Assembly (NCBI GenBank): GCA_947588945.1
Contig: CANPZY010000005.1
Coordinates: forward strand, 1 to 63,326
DNA length: 63,326 nucleotides
Direction of reading: 5' to 3'
Source: an uncultured Clostridia bacterium
GTDB lineage: Bacteria; Bacillota; Clostridia; TANB77; CAG-508
Made by a program: the position numbers and the translations under genes. Under the pieces are notes generated by a model. The model searched no databases. It was given only the letters and a program-made list of their open reading frames with translations, and had not been told where the DNA came from. Positions 5,998 to 38,519 of the stretch are shown piece by piece. The first letter of the stretch is position 1. Every line of letters begins with the position of its first letter.

Positions 5998-6339
5998 ATG
6001 AACAAACGGAAAGTAAAAGAGTTCAAAAAAACTCAGCAACACTTAGCAAAGGAAATTGCTAAAGCATTAGAGGTTGAAAAATTCTCTGTGGACTATGAGC
6101 AAACAGCGATTAGGGCAAAGAACGGAAAAATGAGGTTGAGTAATAGTGTTGTATACCCAAACAATGTTATCCGCGAAGGCAAGAAAAGCAGAGTGATTGT
6201 AATTATGCATTTTTTTACAGAAAAGTGCGATGATAAAATAATCGGAAAGATTCTCAAAAGGCAATTTGCTATTGAAAAAGTTTACGATGGGGTAGTAATC
6301 CGGAGTTCATTTAATCCAAACTCAATAGAAAAATATTAA
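5998..6339 (+). CDS. hypothetical basic protein, 113 aa
   Basis: ORF with RBS taggaggg and a TTGATA-17-(TG)TAAAAT promoter upstream. Confidence 0.5.
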   Translation: MNKRKVKEFKKTQQHLAKEIAKALEVEKFSVDYEQTAIRAKNGKMRLSNSVVYPNNVIREGKKSRVIVIMHFFTEKCDDKIIGKILKRQFAIEKVYDGVVIRSSFNPNSIEKY

Positions 6340-9134: not shown

Positions 9135-10367
9135 ATGTTGAGAAAAGTGAATTGGACAAGATATTTATGTGCTTTAATAATAGCCATAGCTTTAGTTATA
9201 GCTATTATTTTTGCAATTCAAAAAATACATAGTAAAACTTATGAGATAAAACAAGTTTCAACAACCTCAGCATTAGAAATTATTGTACCAGTAGCTAAGC
9301 AAAATAAATCAAAGCAGATTGATTTAGAAAATGTTATATCTCAAAATGAATCAGAAATAATTACAGAAAAAATTGAAAAACAAGAAAAAGATATAGAATT
9401 TACAACTATTTATAGACAAAATGAATCTTTAGCTAAGGGAAAGATTCAAACGCTTCAAGAAGGAAGCGATGGAAGTCAAGATGCAATTATAAAAAAAATA
9501 TATAAAAATGGTGAGATTATTTCAGAAGAACAAATTTCATCAGAAATAAAAAGAGTAGCAATTGATAAAATTGTAGAAATAGGAACAGCACAATATTCAA
9601 ATAATTATGTACCAATAGTTGGTGATGAATTAAAAGTTACATCTAATACATTAGCAGTAAGAGTTGATCCAAATTTTGATGCACAAAAACTTATTACAAT
9701 AGAAGCAGGCGATATTGTAGTCTTAAAAGCTAAACAAGATGATTGGTATTATATTATGTTTAATGGATATCTAGGATGGGCACCAATGGATTGTTTAACA
9801 TATAATAATCCTAATGGACTAGGCGATGGAGACGAAAACAATATTCAATATACAAAAGAAGAACTAACACAAGATTTAGGATTTAGTATGCTTTTAAATA
9901 AAAAAAGTAATTTAAGTTTAGAGCAATTTAGAAAAATTTTAGGAAATGATTCAAGCGACAGAAACAATGTTTTTTCAGAAAATGCGGACTATTTTTACTA
10001 TGCAGAAAAACAATATAATATAAACGGAGTATTTTTAGCAGCAATAGGTATACATGAAAGCGGATGGGGAACATCATCTATATCATTAAAAAAGAAAAAT
10101 TTATTTGGATATGGAGCTTATGATAGAGATCCATCTGGTAGTGCTTCAACATTTAATACTTATGCAGAAGGAATAGATTTAGTCGCTAGAGTTCTAGTTA
10201 AATATTATTTGAACCCAGCAGGAACAGATATATATAACGGTGAAAAAGCAGTAGCTACATATTACAAAGGAGCAACTTTAACTGCAGTCAATAAGTCTTA
10301 TGCAAGTGACAAAAACTGGGCAAATGGGGTTTATAGATGGATGATGTATTTATACAATAAATTATAA
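9135..10367 (+). CDS. cell-wall hydrolase with G5, SH3 and N-acetylglucosaminidase domains
   Basis: G5-like (TIYRQNESLAKGKIQTLQEGSDGSQ ... VEIGT), SH3b-like (LAVRVDPNF ... DDWYYIMFNGYLGWAP), glucosaminidase (NINGVFLAAIGIHESGWGTS ... NLFGYGAYD). The track start at 9126 is GTG. The ATG at 9135 has the better RBS spacing. Confidence 0.8.
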   Translation: MLRKVNWTRYLCALIIAIALVIAIIFAIQKIHSKTYEIKQVSTTSALEIIVPVAKQNKSKQIDLENVISQNESEIITEKIEKQEKDIEFTTIYRQNESLAKGKIQTLQEGSDGSQDAIIKKIYKNGEIISEEQISSEIKRVAIDKIVEIGTAQYSNNYVPIVGDELKVTSNTLAVRVDPNFDAQKLITIEAGDIVVLKAKQDDWYYIMFNGYLGWAPMDCLTYNNPNGLGDGDENNIQYTKEELTQDLGFSMLLNKKSNLSLEQFRKILGNDSSDRNNVFSENADYFYYAEKQYNINGVFLAAIGIHESGWGTSSISLKKKNLFGYGAYDRDPSGSASTFNTYAEGIDLVARVLVKYYLNPAGTDIYNGEKAVATYYKGATLTAVNKSYASDKNWANGVYRWMMYLYNKL

Positions 10368-19573: not shown

Positions 19574-20707
19574 ATGAGGAAAGTAAATTATAAGGAAAAA
19601 GGAATCACATTAATAGCATTAGTAGTAACAATCATAATATTGTTAATATTAGCAGGAGTAACGCTAACAACAGCATTGAGCCAAAATGGTTTATTTCAAA
19701 GAGCAAAGATAGCAGGAGAAAATTATAAAAAAGCAGAGGCAGATGAGACAGAGAAATTAGGAGAAGTAGAAAAAGAGATAGATAAAATAGTAAATGGAGA
19801 AACTCCACCAGACCCACCATCAAGTGGAATAGGAAGTAGTGACATAGCAGAAGATTTAAAAGAATATCAAGGAAAATATGTAGATATAGGGTTGGATACA
19901 AATGATGATAAACAAGTAAATGATTGGGAAATATTTTATGTAAATGAAGATAGAATATTTTTGATAGCAGCAGATTATGTACCAGTAGAAAATTTAAAAA
20001 AATGGGGAGTAATAGATGGAACATTAAAAAGTAATGGATTCATAGAATATTCTAGTAGCAGTAAATATAGTGTAGGTTGGAGCACGCCTACAACGTTTTT
20101 AAATGAAGGCTTAGCAGATTTAAACTTGGTAATGCATAATGGATATTACTTAAAAGGCCTTACGAGTGCTAGTGATTATAACTCAATAGCAGTATCACAC
20201 TTATTAAATAAAACAGCATGGGAAGGAGTAAAAAATGCAGCGGGTAAGAAGACAAGTATAGATTTTGTAATCGGAGGACCAACATTAGAGATGTGGTGTG
20301 CAGCATGGAATAAAGCTGTAGCTGAAGATGAAACCCTTAAGCAAATTCAAGCTGATGATGTGGGTGCGAGTGGATATTATTTGGGATGTGAAGCGACGAG
20401 CCTGGAGCAAAAGTTTGGATTGTGTGTAAATGGTACGGAATATTCTAATCCAAGTTCAAATGAAATTGAGAAGTACAAGGCTTTTTTTCCTCATACGGCT
20501 ATTTGGCGAGGTTGCTACGGATATTGGTTAGCGTCTCCATCGGCTGAGAAACCTGAGAACTTGTTAAGTGTTTACTTTGGAGGCCTTATAAGAAGCTGGT
20601 TGTATAATAACCACGTTTTGGGCGTGCGTCCCGTAGTTTCTCTAGTATCTGGTGTCCGAATAGAAGAAAGGGCTGATGTGAAGAACGTTTACGATTTAGA
20701 AGAGTAG
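19574..20707 (+). CDS. pilin-like protein paralog 2 with a lectin-like C-terminal domain (YWLASPSAE ... LGVRPVVSL)
   Basis: Conserved N-terminal module. The central DWEIFYVNEDRIFLIAADYVP block and the C-terminal motif are shared with 61981-63117. Confidence 0.8.
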   Translation: MRKVNYKEKGITLIALVVTIIILLILAGVTLTTALSQNGLFQRAKIAGENYKKAEADETEKLGEVEKEIDKIVNGETPPDPPSSGIGSSDIAEDLKEYQGKYVDIGLDTNDDKQVNDWEIFYVNEDRIFLIAADYVPVENLKKWGVIDGTLKSNGFIEYSSSSKYSVGWSTPTTFLNEGLADLNLVMHNGYYLKGLTSASDYNSIAVSHLLNKTAWEGVKNAAGKKTSIDFVIGGPTLEMWCAAWNKAVAEDETLKQIQADDVGASGYYLGCEATSLEQKFGLCVNGTEYSNPSSNEIEKYKAFFPHTAIWRGCYGYWLASPSAEKPENLLSVYFGGLIRSWLYNNHVLGVRPVVSLVSGVRIEERADVKNVYDLEE

Positions 20708-20839
20708 GAGTTAAGGTTGATTAAGTTGCGTACTGCTGGGCCTCGCGTCCAGCCTCGCTCCGATGTATAACGTAATTTTTTAATTTTATAGATTATGTAT
20801 TGTAGAGGAAACTGATATTTTTATAATATTAAAATGGGA

Positions 20840-20865
20840 GCCTAGAATCTCTTAAGATTCTAGGC
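20840..20865 (+). other. perfect 11-bp hairpin with a CTTA loop and no U-tract
   Basis: gcctagaatct ctta agattctaggc. A degraded copy (ggaatct cttt agattc) lies at about 19232-19255, downstream of paralog 1. Confidence 0.6.
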
Positions 20866-20910
20866 TATATTGAATGACTTAGAGCTTTTACATGAAAAAT
20901 TAATAAGTAG

Positions 20911-20939
20911 TTGCATTTTATGTAAATTTGTAGTATAAT
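20911..20939 (+). promoter_or_regulatory. sigma-A type promoter (TTGCAT-17-TATAAT)
   Basis: Hexamers at 20911-20916 and 20934-20939. Followed by a leader of about 130 nt with two 7-bp hairpins. Confidence 0.5.
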
Positions 20940-21078
20940 ATAATTCGGTATTAGTGTGATATATATCAAAGGCAAATTGACTTTGATAGCCTAAAAGTGT
21001 ATATGCACGAATACACTCTTTAGAAAGGAGATAAGAAACTATTAACGGCACCATTCTACAAGCAGGAGGTAAAACTTT

Positions 21079-22506
21079 ATGGATGAAAGGCTTTTAAGTC
21101 TTGTACCAAAGCGCTTCCGATGTCCCTATTGTGGAGAATGGCACGAGTGGAAACTTGGGTATAGGTTAGAATTTTATGATTCGTTTGACTATCAAGCTAA
21201 ATTAGAATGTTCTAACGCACCATATGGTTGTAACGAAGGCGATTATAGAATTTATTTCCGTAATGGCTACTGTTACTATTCCACTGTGAAAATGTGCAAA
21301 AGGGCAAATCAATCAATTAGTGGAAAGATTCCAATTTCTTCTATAATTGAAAGTACAAATGCTCCAACTGTCACTTTTGAAGTACCGTTTACTGCGGATT
21401 GTGATGTGGGAAGCTACGAATGCTCAAGTTGCATGTACAGAAGAAAATGTCTTTGTGTCAAGTTGGGTGACGAAGGTGATAAACGCAACATGAAAATCAC
21501 ATTCGGATTTGAATTTGATCAATCACAATACAATCAATTTTCAAAAACTGCAACCTTAGCACAAAAGGAAAAAGAACTGCAAGAGCGCGAACGGGCTATT
21601 GATAGCAAGGAACAGGCCTTAAAAGAGCGCGAACAGACTATTGACAGCAAAGAACTTGCTTTAAAAGAGCGAGAAGATGCTGTTGCTAGTAAAAAACAAG
21701 TTTCTAGGCAGTCACAGGTAAAAGAAAATAAGGAGGATACAGCTATGGCAAAAAACATTTTTAACGTAAACATGGAGTTTGGTCCCAACAAGGACGAGAA
21801 CATTACAAGTACCCTTATGGGCGTTGCTGTCAAGAACGGCGACAACTGGCGGATTTATGACAAGAAGAAGAAGGAAATCACTGATGTCGGCGACATTCAG
21901 CTCGGCAATCTGCCTATCTTCATTCTGCCCACTACCCAGCTCAGCGAGGGCGATCTTATCAAGGACAACGGAGAGTACTATTTTGTAACTAAGGTTGCGA
22001 CGACCAAGACACCGACTCAGACCTTGTCTGCGAGAACTGGCGAGATGAAGAACGTCGTTCCCATCAAGAACATTCTGGGCTTCAGTTGCTACTCGAAGGT
22101 TATTGCCCTCAGCGATTCACTCAACCTGGGAGATGACTTGGATGTAGAAAAGCTGGCCATTATGTCGGCAATGTGCGGTCAGACTGGCGAGGACGGAGGC
22201 CAGATGAATCAGCTCCTGCCTTTGTTCCTTTTCAAGGATGGGATTGGAGGAGATGATGACATGACGAAGCTGTTGCTTATGTCTTCCATGATGACCTCTG
22301 AAGAAGACGGAGGCCAGATGAATCAGCTCCTTCCTCTGTTGCTTTTCAAGGATAAGCTTGGAGGCGATGATGACACGATGAAGCTGTTGCTCATGTCGTC
22401 CATGATGGGCGGCAATATGGCAGGTTCTAACAACCCTGTTATGGGTTATCTGATGATTGATACACTTCTGGGAAAGAAAGAACATTCTCAGAAGGCCGAT
22501 GAATAA
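21079..22506 (+). CDS. chimeric hypothetical protein: Cys-rich N-domain, coiled-coil repeats, then a high-GC C-terminal module with an internal duplication
   Basis: RBS aggaggt. CPYCGEW ... CSSCMYRRKC. DSKEQALKEREQTIDSKELALKERE repeats. An internal aaggagg RBS precedes the in-frame ATG at 21745. C-terminal duplicated units EDGGQMNQLLPL[FL]LFKD.[IL]GGDDD.(T)KLLLMSSMM. Confidence 0.6.
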   Translation: MDERLLSLVPKRFRCPYCGEWHEWKLGYRLEFYDSFDYQAKLECSNAPYGCNEGDYRIYFRNGYCYYSTVKMCKRANQSISGKIPISSIIESTNAPTVTFEVPFTADCDVGSYECSSCMYRRKCLCVKLGDEGDKRNMKITFGFEFDQSQYNQFSKTATLAQKEKELQERERAIDSKEQALKEREQTIDSKELALKEREDAVASKKQVSRQSQVKENKEDTAMAKNIFNVNMEFGPNKDENITSTLMGVAVKNGDNWRIYDKKKKEITDVGDIQLGNLPIFILPTTQLSEGDLIKDNGEYYFVTKVATTKTPTQTLSARTGEMKNVVPIKNILGFSCYSKVIALSDSLNLGDDLDVEKLAIMSAMCGQTGEDGGQMNQLLPLFLFKDGIGGDDDMTKLLLMSSMMTSEEDGGQMNQLLPLLLFKDKLGGDDDTMKLLLMSSMMGGNMAGSNNPVMGYLMIDTLLGKKEHSQKADE

Positions 22507-31828: not shown

Positions 31829-31857
31829 TTGACATTACTAATAAAAAGGGCTATAAT
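31829..31857 (+). promoter_or_regulatory. sigma-A promoter (TTGACA-17-TATAAT) of the thrS leader
   Basis: Perfect consensus hexamers with a 17-nt spacer. Confidence 0.65.
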
Positions 31858-31864
31858 AAAAATT

Positions 31865-32113
31865 AGTTAAATCATTTTAACAAAGCTAATAGGAGAAAAG
31901 TAAAATAGAGGTTACTTAAAGAGAGAGTTAGTCATAGGCTGAAAGCTAACTTAAGAAAACATATTTGAAAAACTAACTTCTTATAGTGCTAGTGAATAAG
32001 CTAGACGCATAAGCTACGTTATAAGCTATAAATTAAGTAAAAAATCCGGGTGGAACCGTACTATATAGATAGTACCCCAGAGCATATTAAAAAATATGTT
32101 CTGGGATTTTTTT
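31865..32113 (+). promoter_or_regulatory. T-box riboswitch leader (threonine)
   Basis: AGAGA/GA motif near 31919. ACU triplets at 31972-31978 in the likely specifier region. T-box sequence aatccgggtggaaccgtac at 32043-32061. Terminator cccagagcatat / atatgttctggg plus a U-run at 32076-32113, competing with the antiterminator. Confidence 0.85.
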
Positions 32114-32150: not shown

Positions 32151-34085
32151 ATGATAAAAGTAACTTTAAAAGATGGTTCTATAAAAGAAGTAGAACAAGG
32201 AGTAAGTATTATTGATTTAGCAAAATCTATAAGTGAAGGACTAGCAAGAGTAGCAACTTGTGCAAAATTAAATGGCAAAGTTGTTGATTTAAGAACTAAT
32301 TTAAATGAAGATTGCAATGTAGAAATTTTAACATTTGATTCTGATTTAGATGGAAAGAAGGCTTATTGGCATACAACATCGCATATTATGGCACAAGCTG
32401 TTAAAAGATTATTTCCAGATACTAAATTTGCAATTGGTCCATCAATAGATGAAGGATTTTACTATGATTTTGATGTAGAAAATAATTTTACAGATGAAGA
32501 CAAAGCAAATATAGAAGAAGAAATGAAAAAGATAATTAAAGAAGATTTACCGATTGAAAGATTTTCTCTTCCAAAAAAAGAAGCCCTAGAATTAATGAAA
32601 GATCAACCTTATAAGCAAGAATTAATAAATGATCTTCCAGAAGGTGAAGAAATATCTTTTTATAAACAAGGTGAATTTACTGACCTTTGTGCAGGTCCAC
32701 ATTTAATGAGCACAGGAAAAGTAAAAGCAGTTAAGCTTTTGTCTAATTCAGGTGCATATTGGAGAGGTGATGAACATAACAAAATGCTTCAGAGAATATA
32801 TGCAATTTCTTTTCCAAAAAATAGTGAATTAGAAGAATTTTTAAAACTTAGAGAAGAAGCAAAAGAAAGAGACCATAGAAAAATAGGAAAAGACCTAGAA
32901 TTATTTATGACTCATGAACTTGTTGGCTCAGGACTTCCACTATATTTACCAAATGGAGCTACAATTAGAAGGTTATTAGAAAGATATATTCAAGATAAAG
33001 AAATAGCTTTAGGATACAAACATGTTTATACTCCAAGTTTAGCTAATACTCAACTTTATAAAATTAGTGGACACTGGGATCATTACAAAGATGATATGTT
33101 TCCAATTATGAAAATGGACAATGAAGAATTGGTTTTAAGACCAATGAATTGTCCTCATCATATGCTAGTATATAAAAACAGCTTACATTCATATAAAGAC
33201 CTACCTTTAAGAATAGGTGAACTTGCACATGACTTTAGATATGAAAATAGTGGAGCAGTATGTGGACTAGAAAGAGTTAGAGAAATGTGCCAAAATGATG
33301 CCCATCTATTTGTAAGACCAGATCAAATAAAAGAAGAAGTAGGACGTGTTTTAAATTTAATAGTTGAAGTATATCAAAAAGATTTTGGATTTCCAGCATC
33401 AGCATTTTCTTATAGATTATCTTTAAGAGATAAAAAGAATAAAGAAAAATACATTGATAATGATAAAATGTGGGAGACAGCAGAAGAACAATTAAGACAA
33501 ATCTTAAAAGAACTTAATATTGACTTCTATGAAGCAGAAGGTGAAGCTGCATTCTATGGACCAAAAATTGATATTCAAATTAAGACAGCACTAAATCATG
33601 ATGTAACAATTCCAACATGCCAATTAGACTTTGCTTTACCAGAAAGATTTGATTTAACATTTATTGGTGAAGATGGTAAAGAACATAGACCTGTAGTTAT
33701 CCACAGAGCAATATTAGGATCATCAGATAGATTTATCTCATTCTTATTAGAAGAAACAAAAGGTGCTCTTCCAACATGGCTTGCTCCTGTACAAGTTAAA
33801 GTTCTTCCAATAACAGATAGACATCATGAATATGCTAATAAACTAGCTGATGAAATGAAAAAATTAGGAATAAGAGTTGAAGTTGATGATAGGTCAGAAA
33901 AAACCGGTTATAAGATTCGTGAAGCTCAACTTGCAAAAGTTCCATATATGCTAATAGTAGGAGACAAAGAAATTGAAGAAAATAAAGTTTCTGTAAGAGA
34001 TAGAAAACAAGGAGACTTAGGTGCTATAGATAAAGACGAATTTATAAAAAATTTAAAAGAAGAAATAGACGAATATAGAAAATAA
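32151..34085 (+). CDS. thrS: threonine--tRNA ligase (full length: TGS, editing, catalytic and anticodon-binding domains)
   Basis: MIKVTLKDGS TGS start. Zinc ligands are present in RPMNCPHH, QNDAHLF and VVIHRAILGS. Motif 3 is GSSDRFISFLLEE. Confidence 0.95.
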   Translation: MIKVTLKDGSIKEVEQGVSIIDLAKSISEGLARVATCAKLNGKVVDLRTNLNEDCNVEILTFDSDLDGKKAYWHTTSHIMAQAVKRLFPDTKFAIGPSIDEGFYYDFDVENNFTDEDKANIEEEMKKIIKEDLPIERFSLPKKEALELMKDQPYKQELINDLPEGEEISFYKQGEFTDLCAGPHLMSTGKVKAVKLLSNSGAYWRGDEHNKMLQRIYAISFPKNSELEEFLKLREEAKERDHRKIGKDLELFMTHELVGSGLPLYLPNGATIRRLLERYIQDKEIALGYKHVYTPSLANTQLYKISGHWDHYKDDMFPIMKMDNEELVLRPMNCPHHMLVYKNSLHSYKDLPLRIGELAHDFRYENSGAVCGLERVREMCQNDAHLFVRPDQIKEEVGRVLNLIVEVYQKDFGFPASAFSYRLSLRDKKNKEKYIDNDKMWETAEEQLRQILKELNIDFYEAEGEAAFYGPKIDIQIKTALNHDVTIPTCQLDFALPERFDLTFIGEDGKEHRPVVIHRAILGSSDRFISFLLEETKGALPTWLAPVQVKVLPITDRHHEYANKLADEMKKLGIRVEVDDRSEKTGYKIREAQLAKVPYMLIVGDKEIEENKVSVRDRKQGDLGAIDKDEFIKNLKEEIDEYRK

Positions 34086-34095
34086 TTTAAAGTCA

Positions 34096-34147
34096 AAAAT
34101 TCTCAGGGAAAAAGTTTAATTAGACTTGTACTTGGGAATTTTTTTTA
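34096..34147 (+). terminator. probable thrS terminator
   Basis: aaaattctcagg / cttgggaatttt, 12 bp including 2 G-U pairs, with a long loop, followed by a T8 run. Confidence 0.5.
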
Positions 34148-34185
34148 TTCACAAAAGTTATATTTTAGGAATATAAGTATGTGAG

Positions 34186-34341
34186 GTGAAAAAAATACCA
34201 ACACTTGGTTCTAACGCACCAATGGGTAGAGCAGGTCAGCCTTTTGAGATAGCCCCTTTATTTATATACTTAGCAAGTTCAGATTCATCTTATGTTACAG
34301 GTCAAGTAATGCATATTAATGGTGGAGAATATAAAGGATAA
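34186..34341 (+). pseudogene. remnant of the C-terminus of an SDR-family oxidoreductase
   Basis: Translates to ...PTLGSNAPMGRAGQPFEIAPLFIYLASSDSSYVTGQVMHINGGEYKG*, the conserved SDR C-terminal segment. There is no Rossmann N-terminus or catalytic YxxxK upstream. Confidence 0.7.
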
Positions 34342-34428
34342 AAGGATTTAAATTATAAAATAAATGCATATAAAAAATGTAAGAAATATAAATGATAAAT
34401 GCACATAAAAAAGAATATATTTTAAAAG

Positions 34429-34486
34429 AAAACAAGATACAATTTAGAGTTTGTACCTTGTTTTTTTTATATGTCAATGTTATAAT
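34429..34486 (+). promoter_or_regulatory. terminator hairpin (34429-34468) followed by an extended -10 promoter (tgttataat, 34478-34486)
   Basis: aaaacaagatac / gtaccttgtttt stem plus T8, then TTGTTT-17-TATAAT with a TG extension. Confidence 0.45.
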
Positions 34487-34573
34487 GAGTACGAAAGTTT
34501 GAACGAAAGAAAGGAGAATTCGTATATAAATTAGTACATTGCAATAAAAACAATTATACGAGAATTTTAAAAA

Positions 34574-35773
34574 TTGAAAGTATCCGAAATTAATAAATTA
34601 GGGAAAGAATTAGAATTATATACTTATGTTGATTATATAGGTAAAGGCTTTCCAATTATTTTACCTAATGGAGCAAAAGTAATTAATATAATTAGAAACT
34701 ATGTTGAGAAAGAAGAAGAAAAAAATGGTTTTGAAATAGTTAGAACTCCAAATGTATCAAAAGCAGAGCTTTATCTTATACAAGATAGATATGAACAAGA
34801 AAAAGAAGAGATGTTTATAATAAAATCAAATGATGGAGAAGAAGAAGAAAAAGAAGAAAACGCTATTGTTCTAAGACCATATGTAGAACCTTTTCATTGT
34901 ACCATTTATAAGACAAAGCCAAGAAGTTATAAATCTTTTCCAATAAAATATTGTGAAACAAGTTCTGTTTATAGAGATGAAAAAGATATAAAAGGAATTA
35001 GTAGGACCAGACAGCTTACACTATCTGATGCAAGCATTTTCACAACAAATGAATCTTTAGAAAAAGAATTAATACAAGTTTTAGAAATGCAGAGAAATTT
35101 TATAAAAAGATTAGGGTTGGATGTAAAGTTTTGTATTTCAACTTGGGATGATAGAAAAAAAGATGAATATATAGGAACTATTGAAGAATGGGATACAACT
35201 ACAAAAGCTATGAAAAATGCATTAGATAATTTAAAAATCCCTTATGAAATAGATAAAAAAGCAAAAATGTATGGACCATTAATTCAAATTTATTATAAAG
35301 ATGAAGAGTTTGCAAGTTTGCAAATAGATTTTGAAATAGTACATAGATTTGATTTAACTTATGCAAATAAAGAAAATAAGAGTGATTTTCCAATTTATAT
35401 GCATATAACTTGTGTTGGAAGTTATGAGAATTTGTTAAGTATTCTTATAGAAAAATATAAAGGAGAATTTCCTTTATGGATAGCACCTCTGCAAGTTTCA
35501 ATTATTCCTGAAGGAGAAGAATATGAGGACTATTTAAATGAGATTGAAGCTAAACTTCTAGAAAATAGGATAAGAGCAAAAATTGATAATTCAGATACAA
35601 ATGTGCAAAATAAAGAATACAAAGCAATAGATTTAAAAATACCATACATAGTTACAGTTGGCAAAGATGAGCTAACTAATAGAAAAATAAAAGTAAGAGC
35701 TAAAAATTATAACAAGATAATGGAATTAGATGACTTAATTAAGGAGGTACTAAGTTGTCAAGCGAAGTATTAG
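34574..35773 (+). CDS. truncated ThrRS-like paralog (class II catalytic core plus anticodon-binding domain only) with a degenerate active site
   Basis: Aligns to thrS from the RDHRKIGKDLELF position onward (EINKLGKELELY). NCPHH reads VEPFH (Cys lost). DAHLF reads DASIF (His lost). GSSDRF reads GSYENL (motif-3 Arg lost). TTG start with a weak RBS. Confidence 0.7.
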   Translation: MKVSEINKLGKELELYTYVDYIGKGFPIILPNGAKVINIIRNYVEKEEEKNGFEIVRTPNVSKAELYLIQDRYEQEKEEMFIIKSNDGEEEEKEENAIVLRPYVEPFHCTIYKTKPRSYKSFPIKYCETSSVYRDEKDIKGISRTRQLTLSDASIFTTNESLEKELIQVLEMQRNFIKRLGLDVKFCISTWDDRKKDEYIGTIEEWDTTTKAMKNALDNLKIPYEIDKKAKMYGPLIQIYYKDEEFASLQIDFEIVHRFDLTYANKENKSDFPIYMHITCVGSYENLLSILIEKYKGEFPLWIAPLQVSIIPEGEEYEDYLNEIEAKLLENRIRAKIDNSDTNVQNKEYKAIDLKIPYIVTVGKDELTNRKIKVRAKNYNKIMELDDLIKEVLSCQAKY

Positions 35774-37935
35774 AATATATAGGTTTAGATTTAAACGAAG
35801 AAAATAAAAATTTAGAAAATAGTAAACCTGAATTTAATATTACTAAATCGTATGATAATAATATGCTTTATAAAGTGTATAGATATGTACCAATTAAAGA
35901 TATTGATATTTTAATTAGTTACACTGATAGAACAACAGATATAAAGGAAAGATACACAACTGCTAAGTCAATTAATGAATTTATAAAAGAAAATAGAGAG
36001 CAGTTTGAAGAAGTATTGAGTTATGCAAAAATAAAAGATATAGAAGAAATTGAAAATATGCAAAAAGAGTTTGAAAAGCATATTCCATATTTTATAAAAT
36101 TTGAAAAAAATTATTTATGGCAGATATATTATTCAAAGGAAAGCAATAGATATTTTATGCTTTTTCCAGCAAGAGATAGAGAAACATCAGTACTTTTTTA
36201 TTTAATAAAAAAGAAAATAGAAAATTCAGATGAAAAAATATATGTACCAATTTGTAAAGAAGATTGTTCAGAAGATTTATTAAAAAGAGAGCAGTTAACT
36301 GATATTGAAAATTATATATGGCTGTTTACAAAAACATGGCCTAAAATTTATGAAGTAAATTTAGATCAAAGTAATATATTATATGTAACTGGTGAAACGA
36401 AGATAAAGGAAGGATTTACAAGCAAATATATAATTAAAATAGATTCTAAGGATAGTGCCGAAATAGAGTATACTTTATTAAAAGCTCTATTTATATTAAA
36501 CACAGAAGCTAATTATAAATTTATTCCTGTGATTGATGATTTAGGAAGACTAAGATTTGAATATGATAATGAAATTATACAAATGGAAAATTTGAGTAGT
36601 TTTATTGAAAATCAAGTAAAAGTTATTATAGAGAAAATTAAGAAATGTACAAAAGATTTTAAACATGGTGATGAAAAATTAAAAAACATAAATGCTGAAA
36701 TAGATAATTTAAATGAAATATATAGAAATCAAGAAAAACAAATTGTACTATTTCTGGATTGTAAAAAAAGTTTTTTTAAAAGGCTTAAATTTTTCTTAAA
36801 AAAGCCAGATAAATCATTAAAAATTAATGAAGTAAAACTAAAAATGAATAAAGTGAAAATATCTGATAAACAAGAAGAGATAGATGATGATGAAATTTTA
36901 GAAGATAATGAAATAATAGAAAACGTTGATATTTATAATATAACAGGAAATTATAATTTATCAGATTTAATTAAAGTTTACAGAAAATATTTAGAAGTAG
37001 AGAAAAAATTAAAAAATATAAACGCCGATATTAAAGCATTAGAAAATAAGCTAAAATATTTAAGCAAAAAAGTTGATAATGCTAAAAAGTATTTGGATGA
37101 AATTGATGAACATAAAAAGAGTATCTTTGAATTTTGGAAATTTACTAAAAAAGATGAAGACTTAAAGCTTAATGAAGGGGAAGAAAATGCCGTTGAAGAT
37201 AGCATAAAAATTGAATTTGATGTAGATGAGGATATGCAAGCATTTGCTAATAAGGTTGATAGTTTACAAAAACAAAAATTAAGCATTGATGAATGTAATA
37301 GCATATTTGCATGCAATTATGTATTAGGTTCGATTAATAGTATTATGATTGGAGAAAATGAAGAAGATATAATTAAAGAAGATTTAGACAAGTTAAAAAA
37401 TAATTATAGAGAAGATAAAACATTTGAAATATTTGGTGATTTAGATGATGATTATACAAAAATAAGAAATTTAAATAATAAAAAACATAGAGAAAATAAA
37501 AAAAATATATATTCAATATTAAGAGTAAATGATAAAACTACTTATGAAGAATTTAAAAATTCAATTGAAAATGTAGTAAGATTATTAAATGAGGCATATA
37601 AAAAGATAACAGCAATAACAGATTTTTCAGTTTATTTTAATAAAAATAATAATGGATATACTAAGGCGGAGATTAATCCTAAAAACTTAAAATATGATGA
37701 AAGCAATATTATATATAAATATAATGTAGCAAAAGATTCAAATATTTTATATTTTAGTAATATTACATATTATGATAATTATAATAAGACTTTACCTAGT
37801 GGAATGGATGAATCAACAGAAGTATTAATTAAGCTTAAGGAAAAGGAAAACTATAAAGAAAATGAAATAAATATTTTAGAAGAAGAAAATTTATATACTG
37901 CTAAAATTAAAAAGATTAAGGTGATAGATTTTTAA
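35755..37935 (+). CDS. unknown 726-aa protein with a central Lys/Glu-rich coiled coil, translationally coupled to the ThrRS-like gene
   Basis: TTG start 7 nt after aaggagg. Overlaps the upstream ORF by 19 nt. No family recognised. Confidence 0.6.
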   Translation: MSSEVLEYIGLDLNEENKNLENSKPEFNITKSYDNNMLYKVYRYVPIKDIDILISYTDRTTDIKERYTTAKSINEFIKENREQFEEVLSYAKIKDIEEIENMQKEFEKHIPYFIKFEKNYLWQIYYSKESNRYFMLFPARDRETSVLFYLIKKKIENSDEKIYVPICKEDCSEDLLKREQLTDIENYIWLFTKTWPKIYEVNLDQSNILYVTGETKIKEGFTSKYIIKIDSKDSAEIEYTLLKALFILNTEANYKFIPVIDDLGRLRFEYDNEIIQMENLSSFIENQVKVIIEKIKKCTKDFKHGDEKLKNINAEIDNLNEIYRNQEKQIVLFLDCKKSFFKRLKFFLKKPDKSLKINEVKLKMNKVKISDKQEEIDDDEILEDNEIIENVDIYNITGNYNLSDLIKVYRKYLEVEKKLKNINADIKALENKLKYLSKKVDNAKKYLDEIDEHKKSIFEFWKFTKKDEDLKLNEGEENAVEDSIKIEFDVDEDMQAFANKVDSLQKQKLSIDECNSIFACNYVLGSINSIMIGENEEDIIKEDLDKLKNNYREDKTFEIFGDLDDDYTKIRNLNNKKHRENKKNIYSILRVNDKTTYEEFKNSIENVVRLLNEAYKKITAITDFSVYFNKNNNGYTKAEINPKNLKYDESNIIYKYNVAKDSNILYFSNITYYDNYNKTLPSGMDESTEVLIKLKEKENYKENEINILEEENLYTAKIKKIKVIDF

Positions 37936-38000
37936 TTGACAGAATATTTTATTATAAATATAATATATAAAAATATAGGAGGATATACATATTAAAAATA

Positions 38001-38519
38001 TTGTATAAAAGATATATGATAAAACCAGATGCCTATTTTGAAAAAATTACAGATATAACAATAAGTTTTTTTGAAGAAAAAAATATAAAGGCTGTAATCT
38101 TAGATGTGGATAATACACTAATGGATTTAGATAGAAAATTACTTAATAATATAGAAGAGTGGATTGAAAATCTAAAAAAAGCAAATATAAAAATTTGCAT
38201 AGCTTCTAATAGTATAAAAAAAGAAAAGATAAAACAAATTGCAGACAAAATTAAAGTACCATATGTATTTTTTTCAATAAAACCTTTCAAAAGAGGTTTA
38301 AAAAAAGCAATAAAAATTTTGCAAGAAGAAAAAGAAAATATTGCAGAAATTGGGGATCAATATTTTACTGATGTAATTGGATCTAAAAGAATGAAATTAT
38401 ATTCAATACTTACAAAGCCGATTTCTGGAGAAAAAACAAAGCTTGGTGAAATTAAAAGAAAGATTGAAAAGAAAGTATTAAAAAAATTAAATATAGAGAA
38501 TTTGTTATCTACAAAATAG
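38001..38519 (+). CDS. yqeG: YqeG-family HAD-IIIA phosphatase
   Basis: AVILDVDNTL ... CIASNS ... GDQYFTDV. The start is uncertain (TTG at 38001 or ATG at 38016). Confidence 0.75.
   Translation: MYKRYMIKPDAYFEKITDITISFFEEKNIKAVILDVDNTLMDLDRKLLNNIEEWIENLKKANIKICIASNSIKKEKIKQIADKIKVPYVFFSIKPFKRGLKKAIKILQEEKENIAEIGDQYFTDVIGSKRMKLYSILTKPISGEKTKLGEIKRKIEKKVLKKLNIENLLSTK

Follow-up and report, generated by a model that had tools for sequence, protein, structure and literature searches.

Downstream of its canonical threonyl-tRNA synthetase gene (thrS), an uncultured Clostridia bacterium carries a second, degenerate synthetase-like gene whose product is probably a non-aminoacylating pseudo-synthetase serving as a lineage-specific accessory subunit of the protein encoded by the overlapping next gene. 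Both genes, hereafter the paralog and the partner, lie in a 63,326-nt stretch of DNA (the window; contig CANPZY010000005.1 of GenBank assembly GCA_947588945.1). In the explanation that we favour, and that we hold to be reasonably probable, a class II core and anticodon-binding domain derived from threonyl-tRNA synthetase (ThrRS) would have lost aminoacylation and been kept by selection in a single clade of uncultured, low-GC, spore-forming gut Clostridia. The paralog would be made from its own promoter, without T-box control, in a translationally coupled operon with a partner of ~725 residues, itself predicted to begin with a new alpha/beta domain, followed by a long stalk of helices and, at the C-terminus, by an ADP-ribosyltransferase-like domain lacking the catalytic Glu. 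The two proteins would then form a stoichiometric complex in which the pseudo-ThrRS plays a regulatory, scaffolding or ligand-sensing role. The partner appears to be the older, self-sufficient component, since it is present without the paralog in related lineages, often right after thrS, and the paralog would be a lineage-specific addition, probably originating from a copy of thrS at this locus.

A ThrRS paralog without its catalytic residues

The paralog matched the Pfam models of the class II synthetase core (tRNA-synt_2b, PF00587, 1.8e-23) and of the anticodon-binding domain (HGTP_anticodon, PF03129, 2.8e-14), and lacked the TGS and SAD/editing domains. Compared with the thrS of the window, which is catalytically intact, it showed 30% identity over 395 aa (BLASTP, E 6e-64, 204 bits), the alignment beginning at thrS residue 244, i.e. 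at the catalytic-domain boundary. On the thrS model TIGR00418 it reached 307.2 bits, under the equivalog cut-off of 383.65, against 744.5 for the window thrS. Its best PDB match was the ThrRS of S. aureus (1nyq, 3.5e-59), and the structures 4hwt, 3ugq and 1evk aligned to it from end to end. Matches of this strength indicate homology and lie well outside what chance would give. Open reading frames (ORFs), Pfam and BLASTP therefore agree with the first-pass annotation of this DNA, which had described a ThrRS-like ORF starting at the catalytic-domain boundary, retaining the anticodon-binding domain and lying ~490 nt after thrS (488 nt from the thrS stop to the paralog start).

That annotation had also claimed, from an alignment by eye, the loss of two zinc ligands and of the motif-3 Arg together with the retention of the third zinc-ligand His, all of which are seen in the BLASTP alignment. 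In the window paralog, the zinc Cys is replaced by Glu (NCPHH to VEPFH), the zinc His by Ser (DAHLF to DASIF) and the motif-3 Arg, a residue required for ATP binding in class II synthetases, by Asn (GSSDRF to GSYENL). These changes extend to the whole family, as seen when its 121 sequences were aligned with the window thrS (residues in E. coli numbering). The Cys334 column is variable (Q65, S14, M8, Y8, R7, E6), the His385 column holds Ser in 120 of the 121 members, and the motif-3 Arg column holds Asn in 97 and Arg in only six, while the third ligand, His511, is kept in 109. Motif 2 persists, with Arg in 114 members (Lys in the other seven) and its Glu in 117, as do the motif-1 Pro (121/121) and an invariant Asp383.

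Comparison of the family with 33 canonical thrS genes from related genomes gave a similar picture. Among 89 columns invariant in canonical thrS, 40 are kept in the paralog family, 17 have switched to another conserved residue and 32 are free to vary. The SGHW element has become x-Asp-Arg-x, with loss of the His309 equivalent; the equivalents of Tyr313, Lys465 and Thr482 are also lost (the Lys column being Ser/Ala and the Tyr column variable), and those of Arg377 and Gln491/Asp493 are retained. On sequence grounds, the paralog is probably a pseudo-synthetase no longer able to activate threonine or charge tRNA. The label of threonine-tRNA ligase, which annotation pipelines may give it, is almost certainly wrong.

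This degenerate protein is widely maintained. Among 5.8 billion proteins searched, over 120 homologue clusters were recovered, 390-426 aa in length and at 50-93% identity. Nei-Gojobori estimates on three genome pairs gave dN/dS values of 0.131, 0.152 and 0.156 for the paralog, compared with 0.039, 0.036 and 0.074 for thrS and 0.127, 0.086 and 0.193 for the partner in the same pairs. The dN/dS of the paralog (0.13-0.16), far from neutral, indicates purifying selection, if a two- to four-fold looser one than that acting on thrS. In a neighbour-joining tree, all paralogs formed one clade on a long stem, the internal topology of which repeats that of the thrS genes of the same genomes, so that the paralog has been vertically inherited. 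A decaying duplicate is ruled out by dN/dS, family size and congruent phylogeny, and the earlier proposal of a repurposed, non-aminoacylating pseudo-synthetase finds support in the family-wide degeneracy, the purifying selection and the vertical inheritance.

The family also stands apart from other ThrRS-like proteins. A phmmer search of 1.84 billion representatives recovered one full-length family representative and a few fragments, the score falling from 430 to 288 bits beyond the paralog family. Among the best 150 matches, we examined the 50 nearest relatives outside the family: all keep the catalytic set G-H-Y-C-R-E-D/E-H-K-Q-H-R with isolated substitutions only, and the zinc triad is full in nearly all of them, with a single substitution in three (P0276, P0279 and P0291). 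No intermediates between active ThrRS and the paralog were found among these 50 representatives. Many of them are N-terminally truncated yet intact ThrRS, 400-434 aa long; truncation is thus common, and what sets the paralog family apart is that its active site has been lost. The canonical ThrRS nearest to the paralog include a subgroup of 567-648 aa (P0247, P0248 and P0250) in which Gln replaces His337, Glu also replacing Asp383 in P0247 and P0248. No account of a bacterial pseudo-synthetase derived from ThrRS came up in searches of the literature on truncated or inactive ThrRS paralogs and on pairs of synthetase-like and ADP-ribosyltransferase proteins, and neither the paralog family nor the partner has a curated family in the Pfam or NCBIfam scans.

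Within the family, the former active site has been rebuilt rather than left to drift. Forty-one family-specific residues are at least 97% invariant and concentrate in the old active site, which is more conserved within the paralog family than in thrS. The new invariant residues include Asp71, Arg72, Phe107, His108, Cys109, Ser151, Ser154, His257, Tyr275, Ser283, Tyr284 and Glu285, with His277 kept; Asn286, in place of the motif-3 Arg, is Asn in ~80% of members. Because the site has been re-lined with an almost invariant residue set, the pocket is probably still in use, most likely for the binding of a ligand or of a protein segment and not for aminoacylation. The family-invariant His108, Cys109, His257 and His277 (window ~34895-35407) stand beside the dismantled zinc site, and could form a relocated metal or ligand site.

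The same pocket could instead belong to an enzyme with a different chemistry, one that would for instance make an adenylate, or take up a nucleotide and ligate a different substrate, by means of a relocated metal or ligand site, the partner being its substrate carrier or co-enzyme. The retained motif-2 Arg/Glu and Arg377, Asp383 and Gln491/Asp493 equivalents would suit such an enzyme, as would the purifying selection and a former active site more conserved than that of thrS, with its new invariant residues and its kept His277. We nevertheless consider this unlikely, given that Asn takes the place of the motif-3 Arg in 80% of members, that the Lys465 and His309 equivalents are gone, and that no known class II-derived enzyme family matches in Pfam or NCBIfam.

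The partner protein and the fate of the anticodon contacts

The sole name given to the partner in any source is 'hypothetical protein'. No family was found for it in Pfam (scanned with one member and with 37 members), NCBIfam or PADLOC, and its only PHROG match is spurious; the PDB sequence profile and Pfam searches returned nothing beyond coiled-coil noise and the designed protein 8fjg (E 0.008). The protein is cytoplasmic, without signal peptide. Modelled by AlphaFold2 (AF2) with 37 homologues, it reached a predicted local distance difference test score (pLDDT) of 81.6 and a predicted template modelling score (pTM) of 0.69, and was divided into three regions. The N-terminal alpha/beta domain is the most conserved part of the partner, with block-mean pLDDT of 78-84 for its first 40 residues and mostly ~90 or more beyond; it has no sequence match, and no PDB or viral structure library (BFVD) fold match is attributable to it. 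The central region consists of long helices (277-336 and 402-465) and a disordered, variable linker (352-390), and gave only weak coiled-coil noise in Pfam.

The C-terminal region could be tentatively assigned to a fold. When the whole model was submitted to Foldseek, the top 15 PDB matches were all ADP-ribosyltransferase toxins. Residues 486-726 modelled alone (pLDDT 87, pTM 0.84) gave 49 top PDB matches, all R-S-E ADP-ribosyltransferase toxins including C2-I, iota Ia, CDTa, C3, Certhrax, SpvB and ExoS, with E-values of 1.6e-4 to 0.16 and template modelling (TM) scores of only 0.15-0.47. Matches in BFVD were phage 'minor capsid' proteins, which we take to be ADP-ribosyltransferase-bearing, and coiled-coil noise. 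Pfam ADP-ribosyltransferase models matched none of the 37 partner members. Arg579-Glu580, Asn669 and a TLPxGM loop are invariant in this region. Arg579 (78/78) directly follows beta-1 and would occupy the catalytic-Arg position, and [S/T]668-Asn669 would fall at an STS-like position, both by secondary-structure order and not by superposition. A conserved catalytic Glu, as in the (Q/E)-x-E motif before beta-5, is absent from the motif columns across all three groups of partner loci defined below (A-C): Glu stands at position 686 in only 16 of the 27 sequences of group A, with L/V/I there in groups B and C, and position 689 varies between E, K and S. With these fold matches and without a conserved catalytic Glu, the modelled C-domain probably has a divergent ADP-ribosyltransferase-like fold, any transferase role being hypothetical. 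The first-pass description of the partner as a coiled-coil protein of unknown family thus stands as regards the family, and falls short for the C-terminal ~240 residues. A second ADP-ribosyltransferase-like domain at the N-terminus, in the manner of binary toxins, was also considered and rejected, hhalign showing no similarity between the N- and C-domains.

A further suggestion of the first-pass annotation, that the paralog binds tRNA-Thr or the thrS mRNA, found no support. In the anticodon-binding domain, the 'EKxGYKIRE' loop and the equivalents of Arg583 and Arg609 are variable across the family. The Glu600/Arg609 region of E. coli ThrRS presumably reads G35 and U36; the Glu600 equivalent is kept in 92% of paralogs, and Arg is found in 29% at the Arg609 position. 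Asn575, Arg583 and Arg589 of E. coli ThrRS touch the anticodon loop (PMC4756836). A basic residue persists at the Arg589 position (K 64%, R 32%); this residue and the Glu600 equivalent are the only anticodon contacts surviving in the family. Since most base-specific anticodon contacts have degenerated, the idea of tRNA-Thr binding is weakened; net charge or isoelectric point, taken as a proxy for RNA binding, was not discriminating.

In its fuller form, that idea would make the paralog an adaptor that binds tRNA-Thr or the thrS leader RNA and brings it to the partner, whose ADP-ribosyltransferase-like domain would have either this RNA or ThrRS as its target. Enzymes of the ADP-ribosyltransferase fold with RNA as substrate exist, the anticodon-binding fold is kept along with the two contacts just mentioned, and the locus is linked to thrS. 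The variable loop and arginines, the loss of the acceptor-end contacts (His309 and Tyr313 equivalents), the missing catalytic Glu of the partner and the presence of the partner elsewhere without the paralog make this role distinctly unlikely.

Gene linkage across genomes and organisation of the locus

A profile scan for the partner over one genome per GTDB species gave at least 543 confirmed stretches, with up to two patterns per gene, corresponding to at least a few hundred partner genes. Gene arrangements were established from the best 80 partner loci and from contig look-ups. All 80 loci come from uncultured gut Clostridia, of rabbit, chicken, sheep, human and other hosts, and they fall into three groups. 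In group A, the paralog is directly followed by the partner (26 genome loci and five of five independent contig look-ups); in group B, a full-length thrS lies directly upstream of the partner, without paralog (17 loci); in group C, no ThrRS-like gene occurs within the upstream sequence at hand (~30 informative loci). The co-occurrence of the two genes, a check proposed in the first-pass annotation, consequently holds in one direction: the partner is present at every paralog locus examined, and the reverse fails, the partner standing alone in groups B and C. Such independent occurrence of the partner had been listed in the first-pass annotation among the findings that would speak against its proposal. 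The partner occurring independently, the paralog is an add-on to it and not an obligate member of a pair.

The coupling of the two genes is nonetheless tight. The 19-nt overlap, the AAGGAGG motif 7 nt before a TTG start and the 726-aa partner gene had all been read correctly in the window. In group A, 14 loci show an overlap of 19 or 22 nt, the others having mostly gaps of 2-76 nt, and an AGGAGG+TTG partner start within the 3' end of the paralog is conserved in most paralog-bearing loci. By contrast, the spacer between thrS and the paralog is plastic, with inserted genes in L005, L024, L029 and L087 and no thrS in L085; thrS is missing upstream of the paralog in several loci (L085, L016 and L021). 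In group B, a terminator usually closes thrS, and a TATAAT box and an AGGAGG motif precede the partner, so that the adjacency of thrS and partner reflects synteny and not an operon.

These observations bear on a possible heterodimer, in which binding of the paralog to canonical ThrRS would regulate or stabilise the enzyme, in the manner of SLIMP with SerRS2 or of the duplicated ThrRS subunits of cyanobacteria. The motif-1 Pro and an N-terminal 'KLGKELE' element are conserved in the paralog family, and the gene often adjoins thrS. The tight coupling is however to the partner and not to thrS, the spacer is plastic, thrS is absent upstream in the three loci cited above and T-box co-regulation is missing; we hold this association to be very unlikely.

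Alternatively, the paralog could have no function of its own and be a relic of a thrS duplication, kept open only for the sake of its translation, on which coupled initiation at the partner start would depend. The partner ribosome-binding site inside the paralog 3' end, the relaxation of selection relative to thrS and the existence of one frameshifted and one truncated copy could all be explained in this way. We judge it highly improbable, as dN/dS is far from neutral along the whole gene, the 41 invariant residues specific to the family occur throughout the protein, and the paralog is also intact at some loci where a gap of 18-370 nt separates it from the partner. A toxin-antitoxin or anti-phage module, pairing an ADP-ribosyltransferase toxin with a pseudo-synthetase antidote or sensor, is scarcely plausible despite the toxin-like fold and the two overlapping genes, in view of the lack of a PADLOC match and of any useful PHROGs match, the absence of a conserved catalytic Glu, the single-copy, vertical and syntenic occurrence among housekeeping genes, and a 'toxin' found without its 'antidote' in most genomes.

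Concerning the origin of the paralog, the locus has a housekeeping context (glmM, thrS, spoIVA, ftsEX) and is single-copy. In the thrS tree, the genomes of group A fall into a single clade that also encloses two genomes of B type, a pattern that fits a single gain of the paralog followed by occasional loss, and synteny suggests that a copy of thrS arose between thrS and the partner.

Several observations weigh against the accessory-subunit explanation as we have formulated it. The partner occurs without the paralog in most related genomes; the role of the paralog could therefore be unrelated to the partner, their linkage being only historical or regulatory. A retained motif-2 Arg/Glu and a highly conserved pocket would also be expected of a still-active enzyme with a new chemistry. 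The resident thrS (30%, 204 bits) is not the nearest relative of the paralog, some foreign ThrRS reaching 35-38% identity and up to 286 bits, and the tree gives the paralogs only a long, unplaced stem; the paralog not being most similar to the thrS of its own genome, local duplication is an uncertain origin. Finally, the paralog is frameshifted in L027 (4803-5907) and truncated to 298 aa in L017 (4622-5518), possibly through decay or through errors in metagenome-assembled genomes.

With these points considered, a pseudo-synthetase acting as accessory subunit of the partner is still the explanation that we retain. A bolder version of it, possible though doubtful, is that the remodelled, near-invariant pocket of the dead ThrRS and the Glu-less partner domain together constitute an uncharacterised machine, catalytic or sensing nucleotides or amino acids, grown from an ancestral functional tie between ThrRS and the partner in these spore-forming Clostridia, for instance a sensor of threonine, Thr-AMP or an NAD-derived ligand, or a modifier of tRNA or protein with non-canonical residues. 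If so, the adjacency of thrS and partner in genomes without paralog would point to a moonlighting ThrRS-partner interaction later taken over by the paralog, i.e. to sub-functionalisation.

Other genes recur around the partner. A 288-aa gene with a RelA/SpoT domain (small alarmone synthetase-like, Pfam-confirmed) lies between thrS and the partner in L058, L062, L070 and L084; considered as a substitute for the paralog, it was rejected, since with its own terminator, and with the partner having its own promoter, it is not coupled to the partner. A Pfam-confirmed MetRS gene and a polysaccharide deacetylase gene recur upstream of the partner, RecN and LysRS genes recur downstream, and SpoIVA lies downstream on the opposite strand in 20 loci (the deacetylase, RecN, LysRS and SpoIVA labels come from our reading of the sequences or from precomputed Pfam labels). 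In L001, L002 and L051, three assemblies of one species, both thrS (~6110-6180) and the partner (~9790-9830) are split by frameshifts, that of the partner falling in an A-run (GGAAAAAAAGAA); these are probably assembly errors and not biology.

The features of the locus in the window are compiled in Table 1. The T-box match upstream of thrS scored well under the gathering score, yet it extends over the entire model, with a 13-bp terminator at its end, indicating either a divergent T-box or a model ill-suited to this AT-rich genome. It is the only Rfam T-box match at the locus: no T-box was detected in the thrS-paralog spacer (34086-34573) at E up to 0.1, as the first-pass annotation had stated for the paralog. 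This spacer holds the 3' remnant of a gene that we take, from our own reading of its motifs and without a family scan, to be of short-chain dehydrogenase type, and which ends in '...GRAGQPFEIAPLFIYLASSDSSYVTGQVMHINGGEYKG*'. Relative to the closest relative, L005, ~790 bp of this ORF are deleted in the window; the L005 ORF, between thrS and paralog, is itself apparently frameshifted near its end. Owing to this remnant and deletion, the spacer cannot be regarded as conserved. The hairpin and extended -10 element that follow are likely to represent a separate promoter for the paralog-partner operon, and TATAAT boxes occur 25-35 nt 5' of the paralog start in many related loci. The paralog start is a TTG behind a weak 'GAGA' Shine-Dalgarno both here and in L005, most relatives having ATG with AGGAG; its translation may be weak in this lineage.

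Table 1. Genes, protein regions and control signals of the thrS-paralog-partner locus (positions in the window).
Feature	Position	Strand	Evidence and remarks
Sigma-70 consensus, perfect, 5' of T-box	31829-31857	+	Promoter scan
T-box leader of canonical thrS	31884-32082	+	Rfam RF00230, 49.2 bits, E 1.1e-8, gathering score 93
Terminator-like hairpin closing the T-box leader	32076-32105	+	Terminator scan
Canonical thrS, 644 aa (TGS, SAD, core, anticodon-binding domain)	32151-34085	+	TIGR00418, 744.5 bits; Pfam TGS, tRNA_SAD, tRNA-synt_2b, HGTP_anticodon
3' remnant of a presumed short-chain dehydrogenase-type gene	34189-34343	+	96% identity to 3' end of longer L005 ORF; flanks align
AT-rich hairpin and T-run	34430-34468	+	Read from sequence
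Extended -10 element, TGtTATAAT	34478-34486	+	Read from sequence; missed by consensus scan
Degenerate ThrRS paralog, 399 aa, TTG start	34574-35773	+	ORF, Pfam, NCBIfam, BLASTP
AAGGAGG (35741-35747), 7 nt, partner TTG	35741-35757	+	Embedded in last codons of paralog; translational coupling signal
Partner ORF, 726 aa, TTG start	35755-37935	+	Overlaps paralog by 19 nt
Partner N-terminal alpha/beta domain, residues 1-276	35755-36582	+	AF2; most conserved part
Partner central region, residues 277-485	36583-37209	+	AF2 secondary structure, pLDDT
Partner C-terminal region, residues 486-726	37210-37935	+	Four helices and beta core; AF2, Foldseek
Promoter TTGACA-17-TATAAT, perfect	37936-37964	+	Begins at base after partner stop; marks 3' end of two-gene unit

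Behind this last promoter, the next gene downstream (38001-38519) is a YqeG/PGP-phosphatase-like HAD gene. Elsewhere in the window, G+C rises to 0.38 at 20001-22000 over a background of ~0.25, which could correspond to an rRNA operon.

Relation to known pseudo-synthetases and toxin folds

Only a few catalytically dead synthetase paralogs are known to have been reused as subunits (HisZ, POLG2, SLIMP). The closest parallel is HisZ, the HisRS-like subunit of the ATP phosphoribosyltransferase HisG, which is likewise a bacterial class IIa paralog that has lost aminoacylation, is kept under selection, is linked to its partner gene and is a subunit of another protein. It differs in deriving from HisRS, in lacking the anticodon-binding domain, which the ThrRS-derived paralog keeps, and in having a known enzyme as partner; the TIGR00443 hisZ model matched the paralog only at E 0.0056. 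POLG2, the accessory subunit of Pol gamma, and the HisRS-like domain of Gcn2 are class IIa folds without catalytic residues that act as accessory or sensor modules. Compared by fold class alone, they resemble the paralog in joining a catalytic-core-like fold to an anticodon-binding-like domain, and differ in being eukaryotic, of other origin and with other partners. SLIMP, an inactive SerRS paralog of insect mitochondria, has been retained under selection with a new role; it pairs with its active paralog, whereas the paralog described here is coupled to a non-synthetase protein.

As regards architecture, the crenarchaeal ThrRS-cat, the yeast mitochondrial MST1 and the bacterial ThrRS of 400-434 aa share the layout of the paralog, a core with an anticodon-binding domain and neither TGS nor editing domains. 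These truncated, active ThrRS have retained all three zinc ligands, the arginines of motifs 2 and 3 and the Lys465 equivalent, unlike the paralog family. The partner, for its part, finds its only PDB fold matches among ADP-ribosyltransferase toxins: C3bot, iota Ia, C2-I, CDTa and Certhrax, including their non-catalytic N-terminal adaptor domains, have four helices and a beta core like its residues 486-726. Unlike these toxins, to which it aligns with the low TM scores given above, it has no Pfam ADP-ribosyltransferase match and no ExE Glu, and its C-domain sits in a cytoplasmic, much larger protein without signal peptide.

Against this background, the paralog family is the only degenerate group seen among the ThrRS-like representatives of 1.84 billion proteins. 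What appears to be new here is a pseudo-synthetase that is ThrRS-derived and bacterial, with a rebuilt, near-invariant pocket; its fixed partner is uncharacterised, and the largest domain of that partner matches no fold in the libraries searched. Should the two proteins indeed form a complex, they would offer a defined entry point to a process in abundant uncultured gut Clostridia and a natural example of a synthetase active site rebuilt for a new purpose.

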